In this document: positions 2,562 through 8,920 of the stretch, piece after piece | Layout: each line of letters begins with the position of its first letter | Numbering within the stretch: position 1 is the first letter of the stretch | Assembly: GCF_057098645.1 (NCBI RefSeq) | Contig: NZ_CM169472.1 | Reading direction: 5' to 3' (one strand) | Length of the DNA: 64,000 nucleotides | Translations under genes and position numbers: made by a program | The notes under the pieces: model-generated | What the model was told of the DNA's origin: nothing | What the model saw: the letters and a program-made list of their open reading frames with translations, nothing else | Databases searched by the model: none

Positions 2562-2961
2562 TTTTTCGGTACTACTAAGACTATTCGTTAATGATAAACC
2601 CGCTTCGCTCAGAGAGCGCCGCAGGACATGAACTGAAACCTCATAAGATATTGCGAGAGTCAGACTGAAAATTATCTCAATACTCCAGCGGGTTTGGCAA
2701 CTGAATAAATCACCCATCCCTCTGCATATCTGGTCGCTGCAAGCGCGCTGCCTTGCTACCACCGCTCTGGCGATAAATCACCGGGTAAGATTAGCGTAAA
2801 AAAGACAGCAAAATGCCGCCTGAATGATAAATCATCATCATGGAACGCAGGCAGCGAAGAGCACCAACTCTCAAATCGGTACTCCTTGTATGCTAAATAC
2901 CTGCGCGCGTCAAATAGATGAAACACGTTCAGCGTAAAAACATTACCGCTTTTACGGCTGT

Positions 2962-4200
2962 TTACTCACTGGAAACCAGTCGTGGCGTGATAAACACCAC
3001 TAACTCGCGTCGTTCATCTTCTTTTCCGTCATGACGAAATAATTGCCCGAACCAGGGAATGTCGCCAAGCAACGGCACGCTATCCTGACCCGATTTATTT
3101 TTACGGGTAAAAATGCCGCCCAGCGCCAACGTTTCTCCGCTTTTGACCTCGACCTGCGTTTCGATCTCCTGCTTATCAATCGCCAGCACTTCGCCATCGG
3201 CCTGCTGTAGCACCTGCCCCGGAACGTTCTGGCTGATGTGTAATTTCAGCCGGATGCGACCTTTTTGTAACACCGTGGGCGTGACCTCCATCCCCAGGAC
3301 GGCCTCTTTAAATTCCACCGACGTCGCGCCACTTTCCCCGCTGGAAACCTGATATGGAATTTCGCTCCCCTGTTTAATGCTGGCAGGCTGAAGATGTGAG
3401 GCCAGCAGACGCGGACTAGCGATAATATCCAGCTGCTGTTTTTGTTCGAGCGCAGAAAGCTCAAGATCCAGCAAACGTCCGTTGATGCGCCCAATGTTAA
3501 AACCGACATGCGTTGTCGCCGTCGCTACGGAGAGGTCGCTGCCAAGCGTGGTGACTTGCCCAACGCCACCAGCTTGTTGCGCATCGGCCAGCGTCCATTT
3601 CACGCCTAACTCACGCAAACTTTTTTCATTAATGGTGACAATATGCGCCGACAGCTCAACCTGCCCGACCGGCAGATCCATTTGCGCTGCCCACTGTTCA
3701 AGGGCGCTTAACGCCGTTTTGTTATCTCGTAGCAAAAGGCGATTGGTGCGTTTATCGACGGTCATACTCCCTTTGGCACTCAGTAGCTTTTCCCCAGCTT
3801 TCGCCAGCTCTCCGGCGTCGGCGTATTGCAGAGTAATATTGCGATTTTCCAGCGGCAGATTTGCCTGCGCCCGCGCCTGCTCCGCTTCCTGGCGGGCGAT
3901 ATTGTCATTCTGCCAGGCAATGGAATGCACTGAGAGAATGTTGCCCTCCTGGCGCGTTATCAGTCCGGCGCTTTTCACTACAGTTTGTAGTGCCTGCTTC
4001 CAGGGAACATCTGTTAGATGTAACGACACCGTACCGCTGACGTCTGGCGACACCACCAGGTTCAACTTCTCCTGTTCAGCCAGCGCCTGCAACACCTGAG
4101 CTACCGGAACGTCATCCACCATCAGCGTCACTTTTTGCGGCTTTGCCGCCTGTACGCCGGGTATCAGCATCAACAGTAGTGCGGCTATCCATTGCTTCAT
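2962..4200 (-). CDS. hofQ: Secretin-family DNA utilization protein HofQ (ComE/PilQ-like)
   Basis: 412 aa ORF with signal-peptide-like N-terminus and secretin C-terminal domain; position downstream of hofMNOP. Confidence 0.93.
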   Translation of the reverse strand: MKQWIAALLLMLIPGVQAAKPQKVTLMVDDVPVAQVLQALAEQEKLNLVVSPDVSGTVSLHLTDVPWKQALQTVVKSAGLITRQEGNILSVHSIAWQNDNIARQEAEQARAQANLPLENRNITLQYADAGELAKAGEKLLSAKGSMTVDKRTNRLLLRDNKTALSALEQWAAQMDLPVGQVELSAHIVTINEKSLRELGVKWTLADAQQAGGVGQVTTLGSDLSVATATTHVGFNIGRINGRLLDLELSALEQKQQLDIIASPRLLASHLQPASIKQGSEIPYQVSSGESGATSVEFKEAVLGMEVTPTVLQKGRIRLKLHISQNVPGQVLQQADGEVLAIDKQEIETQVEVKSGETLALGGIFTRKNKSGQDSVPLLGDIPWFGQLFRHDGKEDERRELVVFITPRLVSSE

Positions 4201-4516
4201 TTGTATCTCCTTGCCGTTGCCACAACCATTGTGGCGGTTCGCAGTTTGTCCCGGTACCCAGCGTTAGTACGTCTGGCGTCAGCTGTAAAATTGTCCAGCC
4301 GTTTTCCAGCACATCATTTTGCTGTACCCGTCGCCATTTCTTCTGCCCGTCTTTTATTACACCGATGATGCGCTCGCCTCGCCCTACCATCCCCTGATAG
4401 CGCCACTGGCTAAGTTCGCTAATCCGGCATAGATCTTCCGGCGGTTTAAAAGGGTCACGCATACCGGTTAAAAGGCACAATGCAATACCTGCCAACAACC
4501 AGCGTTTAACCCTCAT
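4112..4516 (-). CDS. hofP: DNA utilization protein HofP
   Basis: ORF 4112..4555 trimmed to MRVKRWLLAGIALCLL... (134 aa); 3' end overlaps hofQ start by 89 bp in another frame. Confidence 0.85.
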   Translation of the reverse strand: MRVKRWLLAGIALCLLTGMRDPFKPPEDLCRISELSQWRYQGMVGRGERIIGVIKDGQKKWRRVQQNDVLENGWTILQLTPDVLTLGTGTNCEPPQWLWQRQGDTNEAMDSRTTVDADTRRTGGKAAKSDADGG

Positions 4517-4946
4517 GCGGCGTCTCCAGTTGTAGCGTGAACAAAAGGTCATCACCTTCCACGCTTAACGAAAAACGGCTCACGCTGACGTTGCGCTCTG
4601 CCAGCCGTGTAAATGCCGACGGCACTGCTTCCCACAGCGTTTTCAACGCCAACTCACCTCCCTGCGCGGATGGATGCCAGGAAACCAGTTGCGCGCCGGA
4701 TAACTGAAAATCCAGAGGCGAAAAGGGCAGCGTTTTTTCCTCGCTGAAGGGAGTGGTGTCTACCAGGCGATACAGTGCGGCCCACTGCTGGTGATGACTT
4801 GCCCGTAGTCGAATTAATGCGTCGCTCTCTTCATGGTGTGTCGATGACAGAAAAATGAGCGTAACTAACATCAGCAACCAGACTGCCCAGCAAAACTGGC
4901 GGAGGCGGGGTGATATGGCGAACCACCAGTCAAAGAACATGTTCAT
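4506..4946 (-). CDS. hofO: DNA utilization protein HofO
   Basis: 146 aa ORF, hydrophobic N-terminal segment; operon position between hofN and hofP. Confidence 0.88.
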   Translation of the reverse strand: MNMFFDWWFAISPRLRQFCWAVWLLMLVTLIFLSSTHHEESDALIRLRASHHQQWAALYRLVDTTPFSEEKTLPFSPLDFQLSGAQLVSWHPSAQGGELALKTLWEAVPSAFTRLAERNVSVSRFSLSVEGDDLLFTLQLETPHEG

Positions 4947-5469
4947 CGCTAACCTTCCTTGTTAACTGATACTCAAATTGCCAGCGTCCCTGCGCATCCT
5001 GCTGCGTGGCCCCCCGCTGATTGAGATGAAAAGATGCATCCTGGCGGAGTGACGTTTCTAGTGCGTTTAACGCGGTAATGCTTGTTGTCAGCCCCTTGAT
5101 CTCCAGCGTTCCCTGCTGCCAGCTTATCGTTGTCAGCCAGGCGTGCTCGGGTAAAAGCGCCGCCAGTGCTTCCAGCGCAGATTGCCAGTCGCGGGTAAAT
5201 TGTCGCTGGCGCTGCCTTTGCAAACGCTGCTCACGAATTTGTTGGCGCTCCAGCAAACGTGGTTTCGTTATCTGTAAGCTGCGGGCGAGTTGTTGTTCCC
5301 CCTGAAGCAAAACGGCGTCTACGCGAGCTTCGGCGCTGCTTGTCAGACGCAGTATTAGCGTTATCCCGACGGCCAGCAGCAGAGGCGCAACGAACATCAG
5401 CAACCAGAAACGAAGAAAAGCGGTCCGGCGTTGCTGTCGCCAGGGCAAAAAATTAATTGGCGGGTTCAT
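4930..5469 (-). CDS. hofN: DNA utilization protein HofN (PilN-like)
   Basis: ORF 4930..5562 trimmed to MNPPINFLPWRQQRR... (179 aa). Confidence 0.85.
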   Translation of the reverse strand: MNPPINFLPWRQQRRTAFLRFWLLMFVAPLLLAVGITLILRLTSSAEARVDAVLLQGEQQLARSLQITKPRLLERQQIREQRLQRQRQRQFTRDWQSALEALAALLPEHAWLTTISWQQGTLEIKGLTTSITALNALETSLRQDASFHLNQRGATQQDAQGRWQFEYQLTRKVSDEHVL

Positions 5470-6248
5470 CAGTACGCCTTCCCAAGCGCCAGCCCCAGCG
5501 CGATGGCAAAGTCTCCACCTGGCGGCGGTAACGGCGGCTGACGAACAGAAACGGCCTCCCAAGGATCAAATCCGCCTTCGCCACATATCGCGACGCTTTC
5601 GGGATCAACGGATAACGCTGCCGCCAGCTCCTTCGCGCTAGTCATCCCCACCGCCAGTTTGCGCCCCCAGCGATAGCGTGTCGCCCACAGCCACTGTTCG
5701 TTATCACGCCAGGCCAGACATTGCTGATGAGAAGGTAAAAAAGGCAGGAATCGCTGTAATGCACTGGCATCCGGGGTGATCGCGCTCACATGAACACGCA
5801 ACCTTTCTGCCAGAGTGAGTAGCGTTGCCAGCTCTTTGCTTTGCGCGGCAGTCACGTTATAAGCGGGACTGAGTGAGTCTTCGCTGTAATCGAAGCGCAG
5901 GGAGTCCGGATCCATATCCAGCTCGCGGGCCATCGTCCCGGACAGCCAGGCCATTTGCTCCCGCTCACCAAGGGACATCGACGGGCGCGGAAATGACCGC
6001 TGTAATGTGCGACTGGCGGGAAACGCCAACATAATGTGATGACGCTGCGGCAGTTCGCGACTCCACGGTAACAACGTTTTAGCCAGCCGCTGCGCATCAA
6101 CAATCCGCCCATCTTTGATAATGTCGTGCGCCAGCGGCAACCGCCACCAGCGTTGCAAAAAGCATTCTTTTGCGCCCCGCACAATAGCAACCGCTACCGC
6201 TTCTTGCTGTTGTAAATGCAAACCAATTTGCCAGATCTTAAATGCCAT
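5469..6248 (-). CDS. hofM: DNA utilization protein HofM (PilM-like)
   Basis: ORF 5469..6275 trimmed to MAFKIWQIGLHLQQ... (259 aa); GGAG ribosome-binding site just upstream on the minus strand. Confidence 0.88.
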   Translation of the reverse strand: MAFKIWQIGLHLQQQEAVAVAIVRGAKECFLQRWWRLPLAHDIIKDGRIVDAQRLAKTLLPWSRELPQRHHIMLAFPASRTLQRSFPRPSMSLGEREQMAWLSGTMARELDMDPDSLRFDYSEDSLSPAYNVTAAQSKELATLLTLAERLRVHVSAITPDASALQRFLPFLPSHQQCLAWRDNEQWLWATRYRWGRKLAVGMTSAKELAAALSVDPESVAICGEGGFDPWEAVSVRQPPLPPPGGDFAIALGLALGKAY

Positions 6249-6367
6249 TGTGATGATCTCCTTATCACCCGTCACTCTGACGGGTATATCAATGCGTCTG
6301 GCTTGCCTTTATACTACCGCGCGTTTGTTTATAAACTGCCCAAATGAAACTAAATGGGAAATTTCCA

Positions 6368-8920
6368 GTGAAGTTCGTAAAGTATTTTTTGATCCTTGCA
6401 GTCTGTTGCATTCTGCTGGGAGCAGGCTCGATTTATGGCCTATACCGCTACATCGAGCCACAACTGCCGGATGTGGCGACATTAAAAGATGTTCGCCTGC
6501 AAATTCCGATGCAGATTTACAGCGCCGATGGCGAGCTGATTGCTCAATACGGTGAGAAACGTCGTATTCCGGTTACGCTGGATCAAATCCCACCGGAGAT
6601 GGTGAAAGCCTTTATCGCGACGGAAGACAGCCGCTTCTACGAGCATCACGGCGTTGACCCGGTGGGGATCTTCCGTGCAGCAAGCGTGGCGCTGTTCTCC
6701 GGCCACGCGTCACAAGGGGCGAGTACCATTACCCAGCAGCTGGCGAGAAACTTCTTCCTAAGTCCAGAACGCACGCTGATGCGTAAGATTAAGGAAGTCT
6801 TCCTCGCGATTCGCATTGAACAGCTGCTGACGAAAGACGAGATCCTCGAGCTTTATCTGAACAAGATTTACCTTGGTTACCGCGCCTATGGTGTCGGTGC
6901 TGCGGCACAAGTCTATTTCGGAAAAACGGTCGACCAACTGACGCTGAACGAAATGGCGGTGATAGCCGGGCTGCCGAAAGCGCCTTCCACCTTCAACCCG
7001 CTCTACTCGATGGATCGTGCCGTCGCGCGGCGTAACGTCGTGCTATCGCGGATGCTGGATGAAGGGTATATCACCCAACAACAGTTCGATCAGACACGCA
7101 CTGAGGCGATTAACGCTAACTATCACGCGCCGGAGATTGCTTTTTCTGCGCCGTACCTGAGCGAAATGGTGCGCCAGGAGATGTATAACCGTTATGGCGA
7201 AAGTGCCTATGAAGACGGTTATCGCATTTACACCACCATCACCCGCAAAGTGCAGCAGGCCGCACAGCAGGCGGTACGTAATAACGTGCTGGACTACGAC
7301 ATGCGCCACGGCTATCGCGGCCCGGCAAATGTGCTGTGGAAAGTGGGCGAGTCGGCGTGGGATAACAACAAGATTACCGATACGCTGAAGGCGCTGCCGA
7401 CCTATGGTCCGCTGCTGCCTGCCGCAGTCACCAGCGCCAATCCTCAGGAAGCGACGGCGATGCTGGCGGACGGGTCGACCGTCGCATTGAGTATGGAAGG
7501 CGTTCGCTGGGCGCGTCCTTACCGTTCGGATACTCAGCAGGGACCGACGCCGCGTAAAGTGACCGATGTTCTGCAAACGGGTCAGCAAATCTGGGTTCGT
7601 CAGGTTGGCGATGCATGGTGGCTGGCACAAGTGCCGGAAGTGAACTCGGCGCTGGTGTCGATCAATCCGCAAAATGGTGCCGTTATGGCGCTGGTCGGTG
7701 GCTTTGATTTCAATCAGAGCAAGTTTAACCGCGCCACCCAGGCACTGCGTCAGGTAGGTTCCAACATCAAACCGTTCCTCTACACCGCGGCGATGGATAA
7801 AGGTCTGACGCTGGCAAGTATGTTGAACGATGTGCCAATTTCTCGCTGGGATGCAGGTGCCGGTTCTGACTGGCAGCCGAAGAACTCACCACCGCAGTAT
7901 GCCGGTCCAATTCGCTTACGTCAGGGGCTGGGTCAGTCGAAAAACGTGGTGATGGTACGCGCAATGCGGGCGATGGGCGTCGACTACGCCGCAGAATATC
8001 TGCAACGCTTCGGCTTCCCGGCGCAAAACATTGTCCACACCGAATCGCTGGCGCTGGGTTCAGCGTCCTTCACTCCAATGCAGGTGGCGCGCGGCTACGC
8101 GGTCATGGCGAACGGCGGCTTCCTGGTGGACCCGTGGTTTATCAGCAAAATTGAAAACGATCAGGGCGGCGTGATTTTCGAAGCGAAACCGAAAGTAGCC
8201 TGCCCGGAATGTGATATTCCGGTGATTTACGGTGATACGCAGAAATCGAACGTGCTGGAAAATAACGATGTTGAAGATGTCGCTATCTCCCGCGAGCAGC
8301 AGAATGTTTCTGTACCAATGCCGCAGCTGGAGCAGGCAAACCAGGCGTTAGTTGCGAAGACTGGCGCGCAGGAGTATGCACCGCACGTCATCAACACTCC
8401 GCTGGCATTCCTGATTAAGAGTGCTTTGAACACCAATATCTTTGGTGAGCCAGGCTGGCAGGGTACCGGCTGGCGTGCAGGTCGTGATTTGCAGCGTCGC
8501 GATATCGGCGGGAAAACCGGGACCACTAACAGTTCGAAAGATGCGTGGTTCTCGGGTTACGGTCCGGGCGTTGTGACCTCGGTCTGGATTGGCTTTGATG
8601 ATCACCGTCGTAATCTCGGTCATACAACGGCTTCCGGAGCGATTAAAGATCAGATATCAGGTTACGAAGGCGGTGCCAAGAGCGCCCAGCCTGCATGGGA
8701 CGCTTATATGAAAGCCGTTCTTGAAGGTGTGCCGGAGCAGCCGCTGACGCCGCCGCCGGGTATTGTGACGGTGAAAATCGATCGCAGCACCGGGCAGTTA
8801 GCTAATGGTGGCAACAGCCGCGAAGAGTATTTCATCGAAGGTACGCAGCCGACACAACAGGCGGTGCACGAGGTGGGAACGACCATTATCGATAATGGCG
8901 AGGCACAGGAATTGTTCTGA
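6368..8920 (+). CDS. mrcA: Penicillin-binding protein 1A (bifunctional glycosyltransferase/transpeptidase)
   Basis: ORF 6344..8920; annotated-type GTG start at 6368 (VKFVKYFLILAVCC...) gives 850 aa; transglycosylase and transpeptidase motifs present; divergent from hofM. Confidence 0.95.
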   Translation: MKFVKYFLILAVCCILLGAGSIYGLYRYIEPQLPDVATLKDVRLQIPMQIYSADGELIAQYGEKRRIPVTLDQIPPEMVKAFIATEDSRFYEHHGVDPVGIFRAASVALFSGHASQGASTITQQLARNFFLSPERTLMRKIKEVFLAIRIEQLLTKDEILELYLNKIYLGYRAYGVGAAAQVYFGKTVDQLTLNEMAVIAGLPKAPSTFNPLYSMDRAVARRNVVLSRMLDEGYITQQQFDQTRTEAINANYHAPEIAFSAPYLSEMVRQEMYNRYGESAYEDGYRIYTTITRKVQQAAQQAVRNNVLDYDMRHGYRGPANVLWKVGESAWDNNKITDTLKALPTYGPLLPAAVTSANPQEATAMLADGSTVALSMEGVRWARPYRSDTQQGPTPRKVTDVLQTGQQIWVRQVGDAWWLAQVPEVNSALVSINPQNGAVMALVGGFDFNQSKFNRATQALRQVGSNIKPFLYTAAMDKGLTLASMLNDVPISRWDAGAGSDWQPKNSPPQYAGPIRLRQGLGQSKNVVMVRAMRAMGVDYAAEYLQRFGFPAQNIVHTESLALGSASFTPMQVARGYAVMANGGFLVDPWFISKIENDQGGVIFEAKPKVACPECDIPVIYGDTQKSNVLENNDVEDVAISREQQNVSVPMPQLEQANQALVAKTGAQEYAPHVINTPLAFLIKSALNTNIFGEPGWQGTGWRAGRDLQRRDIGGKTGTTNSSKDAWFSGYGPGVVTSVWIGFDDHRRNLGHTTASGAIKDQISGYEGGAKSAQPAWDAYMKAVLEGVPEQPLTPPPGIVTVKIDRSTGQLANGGNSREEYFIEGTQPTQQAVHEVGTTIIDNGEAQELF

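Follow-up and report, generated by a model that had tools for sequence, protein, structure and literature searches.

The hofP and hofQ genes of the hof operon overlap out of frame by 89 nt in the 64,000-nt stretch of DNA analysed here (NCBI RefSeq assembly GCF_057098645.1, contig NZ_CM169472.1; the whole stretch is called the window). This overlap is very likely a genuine and conserved dual-coding region that arose by a 3' extension of hofP, with both annotated gene ends being correct. Its unusual length had been pointed out in the original prediction, and both the coordinates and the RefSeq annotation agree with it. The overlap itself is thus already annotated; what is new is the comparative evidence that it is ancient, derived within one family (the Enterobacteriaceae) and constrained in both frames.

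Both overlapping open reading frames (ORFs) are real genes with homologues. HofP matches its own Pfam family (PF10748 HofP, 3e-80) and its core has a PilP-like fold, while HofQ carries the Pfam domains STN, Secretin_N and Secretin and matches PilQ structures in the PDB (down to 6e-74), as well as the HofQ fragment 2y3m. Within the overlap, codon position 1 of hofQ corresponds to codon position 2 of hofP, and the A and T of the hofQ ATG are held by the HofP codon N106 (AAT). HofP residues 106-134 are the signal-peptide codons of hofQ read one base shifted, and the TGA that ends hofP sits in the invariant VTLxVDD motif of HofQ. The conserved core of HofP ends in C92-E-P-x-x-W-x-W-x-R-Q/E-G103, and the codons Q102-G103-D104 that contain the Shine-Dalgarno (SD) sequence of hofQ form the end of the folded HofP domain. 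In an AlphaFold2 model built from 72 sequences, residues ~30-103 form a beta-domain (predicted local distance difference test score, pLDDT, ~90) with the last strand at 96-101. Foldseek relates this core to 3jc8 PilP (2e-4), 2ivw, 2y4x/2y4y and 3oss GspC, i.e. to the PilP / GspC HR-domain fold. Residues 109-134 have a pLDDT below 50 and coincide with the tail encoded by the overlap, which is therefore predicted to be disordered. The tail of ~29 residues is hydrophilic and rich in Gly, Ala, Asp, Arg and Lys.

When hofQ is read from the ATG at 4200, the product begins with MKQWIAALLLMLIPGVQA, followed after the predicted cleavage site by AKPQ. Judged by inspection (positive n-region, h-region of 7-15 residues, small residues at -3/-1), this is a classic signal peptide: K2 lies in the n-region, WIAALLLMLIPGV forms a 13-residue hydrophobic core (10-aa Kyte-Doolittle hydropathy 2.88), and VQA precedes the cleavage site with an A behind it. 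All features of a Sec signal peptide are thereby present. The internal M11 (4170) and M27 (4122) lack an SD, a positive n-region and a hydrophobic core; inspection of the alternative HofQ starts, which the original prediction had proposed as a check, found the signal peptide in the 4200 version only. The ATG is kept as the hofQ start in about 76 Enterobacteriaceae species, and the N-terminal 18-20 residues are signal-peptide-like in every one of them despite sequence turnover. An SD-like motif (AAGGAG, GAAGGA or GAGGGA-type) stands at the same place in nearly all species compared. The HofQ N-termini align from residue 1 across the family, and the downstream gene is not 5'-extended relative to its orthologues. 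In several species a stop codon in the hofQ frame directly precedes the ATG, so that a start further upstream is impossible as well.

For a stop to occur in the hofP frame, a hofQ codon that ends in T must directly precede one that begins with AA, AG or GA. The codons of the signal-peptide h-region (NTN, GCN) cannot yield TAA, TAG or TGA in this frame, which is therefore naturally stop-free, and the first realistic chances for a stop arise at the charged residues of mature HofQ. Expected values were obtained from a null in which the HofQ amino acids were fixed and the synonymous codons shuffled. It was applied to 80 loci from GTDB species representatives, all Enterobacteriaceae, that gave 76 usable hofP/hofQ pairs. 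In the rest of hofQ, off-frame stops in the hofP frame were observed at 1.05x the expectation. For the window sequence, shuffling gave probabilities of 0.12 for an earlier stop, 0.17 for a stop 3 nt earlier, 0.45 for a stop exactly here and 0.25 for a later one, so that the long open frame alone is not surprising.

Across the species, the conservation of the open frame and of the stop site exceeds chance. The stop falls exactly at the GAT-GA site in 56/76 species (25.2 expected) and 3 nt earlier (GTT-GA) in 8/76 (9 expected). Taken together, 64/76 species have their stop at the VDD site or 3 nt upstream of it, and most overlaps measure 80-98 nt. Premature hofP stops, with overlaps of 38-80 nt, are found in 9/76 species against 28.3 expected, and later ones (122-140 nt) in 3/76 against 14. 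When the species were collapsed to 26 lineages, 6 premature stops remained against 10.5 expected (P=0.02), with 18 stops at the VDD site against 11.1 (P=0.003). The D29 codon, within which the stop begins, is GAT in 71/76 species (93%), compared with 40/62 for D30. D29 has a pairwise synonymous divergence of 0.125, compared with ~0.5 in the rest of hofQ.

The composition of the tail provides a further signature of selection. The wobble position of hofQ is position 1 of the HofP codons, where a T would give Cys, Tyr, Phe, Trp or Ser (or a stop). At 4-fold-degenerate hofQ codons, wobble T amounts to 3.7% in the overlap versus 16.3% downstream, and the depletion is equally strong where T makes no stop (3.6% vs 15.4%). 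Not one of the 338 opportunities for Cys in the tail is used. Compared with the synonymous shuffle, the tails of the species set contain 0 Cys (94 expected), 6 Tyr (49), 8 Phe (28), 2 Trp (9.5) and 30 Leu (62), versus 137 Lys (41.5). Among 26 lineage representatives, Cys is found 0 times vs 26.8 expected (log10 P = -14.6) and aromatics 5 times vs 30.9, a 6-fold depletion. Two controls link these patterns to the overlap. Where lineages have truncated it, the freed stretch of hofQ shows 10.8% T and Cys is back in the alternative frame. In 10 outgroup hofQ/pilQ genes that lack the long overlap, wobble T reaches 27% over the first 28 codons, and 16 Cys, 30 aromatics and 12 stops occur among the 280 codons of the alternative frame. 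A general codon bias of 5' ends or signal peptides as the cause of the depletion is ruled out by these outgroup 5' ends. At the same time, the hofQ frame in the overlap retains its signal-peptide character and the VTLxVDD motif. Both frames are constrained within the overlap, and dual-frame selection is detectable. The substitution patterns suggest that the tail is translated and under purifying selection.

The overlap of ~80-98 nt is found family-wide in the Enterobacteriaceae; Atlantibacter, inside the family, has 74 nt. Outside it, the mrcA-pilMNOPQ-aroK-aroB locus shows a short overlap or a gap at the hofP/hofQ (pilP/pilQ) junction. The overlaps comprise 4 nt in Edwardsiella hoshinae (ATGA) and in Ca. 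Symbiodolus, 8 nt in a PilP(PF04351)/PilQ locus and 11 nt in locus L084. Gaps were found of +3 nt in Dickeya, about +4 to +10 nt in Serratia aquatilis (called start corrected), +4 nt in locus L086, +30 nt in the Pectobacteriaceae-like contig L083 and +89 nt in Pectobacterium. The outgroup HofP orthologues measure 104-129 aa, compared with 134 aa for HofP of E. coli. From these short overlaps and gaps it follows that the long overlap is a derived trait of the Enterobacteriaceae. A strain-specific error, be it a frameshift or a stop mutation, does not account for the extension, given that it is fixed in the family as a whole and in 5,423 E. coli genomes.

In the simplest scenario, an ancestral stop would have been lost and translation would have continued to the next stop out of frame. 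In the ancestor of the Enterobacteriaceae, hofP would have lost a stop located at or just before the hofQ start, and its translation would then have run through the ribosome-binding site (RBS), the start codon and the signal-peptide codons of hofQ, a stop-free frame. The run-on would have ended at the first reliable out-of-frame stop, the TGA in the invariant Asp-Asp/Glu codons of mature HofQ (gaTGAc), and HofP would have gained a tail of ~29 residues behind its PilP-like beta-domain. From then on, the synonymous sites of the hofQ signal peptide would have been constrained such that the tail never contains Cys, almost never aromatics, is rarely cut short and keeps the same stop. As a best guess, selection would mainly ensure that a periplasmic tail does no harm and stays soluble and unreactive, with no stray disulfides near the conserved C30/C92 pair and no hydrophobic or aromatic C-terminus. 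The tail may also act as a flexible linker near the contact between HofP and HofQ (PilP and the N0 domain of the secretin). In this scheme hofQ would most likely start independently at its own strong SD, which lies within the codons that end the folded HofP domain.

A separate observation was made at the outgroup junction of L083 (2246-2306), where a ~14-nt unit (GGATGATGAACAAC) occurs three times in tandem across the hofP stop. This repeat suggests that the junction is prone to slippage and rearrangement there.

Three other explanations have to be weighed. The original prediction had raised a misannotated hofQ start, with the true start at a downstream internal Met; at M11 or M27, the overlap would shrink to 59 or 11 nt, respectively. 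ATG codons are indeed present at these two positions, and most long co-directional overlaps in databases have been attributed to 5'-extension errors of the downstream gene (PMC2478687). However, an outer-membrane secretin needs a signal peptide, which neither internal start would provide, and the ATG at 4200 with its SD is kept in all genera, whereas positions 11 and 27 vary (L/V/I/T/A) instead of being conserved Met. With the SD, the signal peptide and the conservation all found at the annotated ATG only, the sequence evidence leaves this alternative hardly credible, and it was rejected. It is also unlikely that the HofP tail is unselected read-through, either neutral junk or untranslated, with an overlap that persists since signal-peptide codons cannot make stops. 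In line with it, most synonymous shuffles leave the frame open as far as the VDD site (the window sequence has a probability of only 0.12 for a premature stop), and the tail, with its predicted disorder, shows little conservation and has been shortened or lost in several lineages. Yet such read-through predicts an ordinary wobble composition, whereas T is 4-fold depleted. Nor does it fit with the missing Cys, the scarce aromatics and the conserved stop-forming GAT, or with the fact that the depletion is gone in outgroups without the overlap and relaxed where the overlap is truncated.

The third alternative, that the overlap couples hofQ to hofP translation and thereby sets the HofP:HofQ stoichiometry, is quite improbable. 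The coupling could operate by reinitiation, or by hofP ribosomes unfolding or occluding the hofQ RBS. In its favor, all four hofMNOPQ junctions overlap (1, 17, 11 and 89 nt, from hofM to hofQ), PilP and the secretin form a complex while overlapping pairs are enriched among complex subunits (PMC10666635), and premature hofP stops inside the 5' region of hofQ are under-represented. Against it, reinitiation in E. coli is nearly lost at a stop-start distance of ~20 nt (PMC10666635), as determined with the stop moved upstream of the start and the intergenic distance varied. At the hofP/hofQ junction the stop comes 89 nt after the start, a geometry opposite to the one in that study, which varied intergenic distance and not overlap length; in termination-reinitiation the stop is located within a few nucleotides of the start (typically -4 or -1). 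Classical termination-reinitiation of hofQ is unlikely, and the translational coupling suggested in the original prediction is, in this sense, not favored. With reinitiation being unlikely at 89 nt, hofQ probably initiates on its own SD, which is strong, optimally spaced and predicted to be unpaired, as is the AUG, in the single-sequence fold of the E. coli mRNA. RNAalifold on 23 species gave -1.6 kcal/mol without a covarying pair, and an RNA structure that sequesters the hofQ RBS or explains the synonymous constraint was rejected on the basis of both folds. Coupling also leaves the avoidance of Cys and aromatics in the tail unexplained, and relatives manage with 4-nt overlaps or gaps. Still, ribosomes that translate the hofP tail must pass the hofQ start and could modulate its initiation by unfolding or occlusion.

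Several points weigh against a dual-coding region under selection. The evidence that the HofP tail is made at all consists of substitution patterns, and its sequence is poorly conserved between genera. Poor expression of the hof operon without Sxy is described in PMC3330819. The species are phylogenetically related, so that species-level counts overstate independence, and the lineage-level support for a frame that is kept open is only moderate (P=0.02). The codon-shuffle null ignores codon-pair and context effects, even if the control region behaved well. Finally, ~11/78 lineages have shortened the overlap to 38-62 nt or, with a change of frame in lineages L046 and L052, reverted to a 4-nt ATGA overlap, which makes a specific essential function of the tail doubtful. 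A bolder, joint reading of the data can be offered only tentatively: the overlap would be the longest verified family-wide co-directional overlap in E. coli and an exception to the 60-bp rule. Its tail would be a functional, lineage-specific disordered module that shapes the synonymous sites of the signal peptide, be it as a linker or contact between HofP and HofQ or as a device with which hofP ribosomes tune hofQ initiation.

Viral overlapping genes offer well-described cases of overprinting in which a C-terminal extension into the neighbouring gene, after the loss of a stop, produces a new and disordered peptide. The hofP/hofQ pair resembles such cases in that hofP, compared with orthologues outside the family, has a longer 3' end and that the new segment is biased in composition, predicted to be disordered and laid over a weakly constrained signal peptide. 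It corresponds to category iii ('3'-end extension') of PMC2478687. Different from that category, the HofP extension is no annotation or sequencing artefact, being fixed across a bacterial family with purifying selection on the new frame. The same study reported no real co-directional overlap >60 bp; the longest genuine one that it could identify was holD/rimI, with 32-56 bp. Judged by the present criteria, the hofP/hofQ overlap is a true exception to this rule. The pair does not appear in the supplementary lists of PMC2478687, and no paper that discusses the overlap was found among the literature naming both genes. The real co-directional overlaps of PMC2478687 are likewise out of frame, conserved across enterobacterial genera and formed by an upstream C-terminus over a downstream N-terminus. 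The one between hofP and hofQ is longer than these (89 nt; 80-98 nt in most genera), and its overprinted partner is a signal peptide.

The reinitiation overlaps of the ATGA/TGATG type (PMC10666635) share the operon logic and the link with subunits of envelope complexes, and the other hof junctions (-1, -17, -11) as well as the 4-nt outgroup junctions of Edwardsiella and Ca. Symbiodolus (pilP/hofP-hofQ, ATGA-type) can be compared to them. The hofP/hofQ junction differs, with its stop outside the reinitiation range and a strong SD dedicated to hofQ. With the PilP-PilQ and GspC-GspD systems, HofP shares the fold of its core and HofQ the PilQ-type secretin architecture, and the synteny mrcA-pilMNOPQ-aroK-aroB is common to the hof and pil loci. 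From homology and operon context, HofP may bind the secretin N0 domain and PilN/PilO. Compared to the PilP lipoproteins named in the PDB matches, HofP has no N-terminal lipobox Cys and carries the family-specific C-terminal tail; a conserved motif ending in LLTG-MRDPF takes the place of the lipobox. Compared to the matched PilQ chains (571-901 aa), HofQ is short (412 aa), and their long N-terminal regions are not covered. HofP also evolves much faster than HofQ, with identities of ~60% for HofP and 84-87% for HofQ when E. coli is compared with Salmonella or Citrobacter.

The finding is of modest interest, mainly for students of overlapping genes, and leaves the known function of the Hof DNA-uptake machinery unchanged. 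For annotation, rules that flag all co-directional overlaps >60 bp as errors would wrongly 'correct' either hofQ or hofP, and the pair provides a counter-example in which the start, the stop and both frames are backed by comparative evidence. For evolution, it offers a clean bacterial case of overprinting, with a change at the 3' end of hofP, extension over a signal peptide in a stop-free frame and later purifying selection on the new peptide; the imprint of this selection can be measured at the synonymous sites of hofQ, the older gene. For engineering, HofP is altered whenever the 5' end of hofQ is recoded synonymously or codon-optimised, and deletions of hofP take away the RBS and the start of hofQ.

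The local gene order is aroB-aroK-hofQ-hofP-hofO-hofN-hofM, all on the minus strand, with mrcA being divergent (Table 1). The window comes from E. coli: positions 3900-4600 are 100% identical to E. coli O145:H28 strain RM12761, and 5,423/5,426 complete E. coli genomes contain this segment at 96.7-100% identity. In the RefSeq annotation of a 100%-identical genome (NZ_CP007133), hofQ at 1563-2801 and hofP at 2713-3117 (locus coordinates) coincide with the window coordinates of both genes. The K-12 junction b3392/b3391 is given as -89 in the supplement of PMC10666635, whose values for the other hof junctions also match.

Table 1. Coordinates in the window of the hof genes and of the elements at the hofP/hofQ junction
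Feature	Position	Strand	Description	Basis
hofQ CDS (coding sequence)	2962..4200	-	412 aa secretin / DNA uptake porin; start ATG 4200-4198	ORF list, RefSeq
hofP CDS	4112..4516	-	134 aa, PilP-like; start ATG 4516, stop TGA 4114-4112	ORF, RefSeq
Dual-coding overlap, 89 nt	4112..4200	-	HofP N106-G134 + stop over HofQ M1-D30 (signal peptide, first mature residues)	
hofQ codons D29-D30 (GAT GAC)	4111..4116	-	bases 4114-4112 are the hofP stop TGA (gaTGAc)	
HofQ signal-peptide coding region	4147..4200	-	MKQWIAALLLMLIPGVQA, predicted cleavage after A18	Hydropathy, charge, AXA inspection
hofQ Shine-Dalgarno AAGGAG	4207..4212	-	6-nt spacer to ATG 4200; within HofP codons Q102-G103-D104	
hofO CDS	4506..4946	-	11-nt overlap with hofP	ORF, RefSeq
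hofN CDS	4930..5469	-	17-nt overlap with hofO	ORF, RefSeq
hofM CDS	5469..6248	-	1-nt overlap with hofN	ORF, RefSeq

In the region 2700-6450, an Rfam scan gave no family at its gathering score, and a promoter/terminator scan found nothing exceeding the shuffle expectation and no internal promoter ahead of hofQ. A CRP-S-like site upstream of hofM was searched as TGCGA-N6-TCGCA with <=2 mismatches, a pattern that is possibly too strict; it was unmatched in the mrcA-hofM spacer and matched less often than by chance across the whole window. The RefSeq gap between hofQ and aroK measures 400 nt (window 2562-2961). Its hofQ-proximal 200 nt (2763-2961) contain two minus-strand hairpins that resemble terminators (2958-2945 and 2821-2803); they may mark the end of the hof transcript ahead of the aroK promoters. 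A perfect 7-bp hairpin (GCCACAA-TGG-TTGTGGC; window 4219-4235, minus strand) is located 7 nt upstream of the hofQ SD in the HofP codons P95-Q100. It forms in the minimum free energy fold of E. coli, and in other genera it is neither conserved nor covarying.

Some individual genomes and proteins deviate from the general picture. In protein P0076 (517 aa, 29 member sequences), HofP(1-125) is fused directly to mature HofQ, with TRRTGGKA joined to QKVTLMVDD. The fusion fits the loss of 1 nt from the GCCGCAAAAAG run within the overlap (window 4130-4150 region), which would put all of HofP in place of the HofQ signal peptide; both a natural variant and an assembly error are conceivable. A programmed frameshift that gives a HofP-HofQ fusion was rejected, as the P0076 fusions appear to stem from the 1-nt deletion and not from the wild-type sequence. 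In Escherichia albertii NBRC 107761 (L003:3283-3285), an in-frame TAA lies about one third into hofP, while hofQ is intact and the overlap geometry unchanged; hofP is probably a pseudogene in that strain. In E. coli L1PEag1 (NZ_CP145513; L002:3022-4448), the insertion sequence IS1397 of the IS3 family splits hofP into two annotated pseudogene pieces. The hofQ 5' region of the Citrobacter koseri NCTC10786 assembly (L040) has no VTLxVDD anchor in the hofQ frame and its tblastn match begins only at residue 38-76, which suggests that the 5' end is frameshifted or disrupted there. In Citrobacter sp. Res13 (L017:3431-3601), 12 nt of the GACAAGGACAAG motif, which contains the SD, are duplicated directly ahead of the hofQ start; this gives HofP an additional 'QGQG' and creates a second SD-like site.

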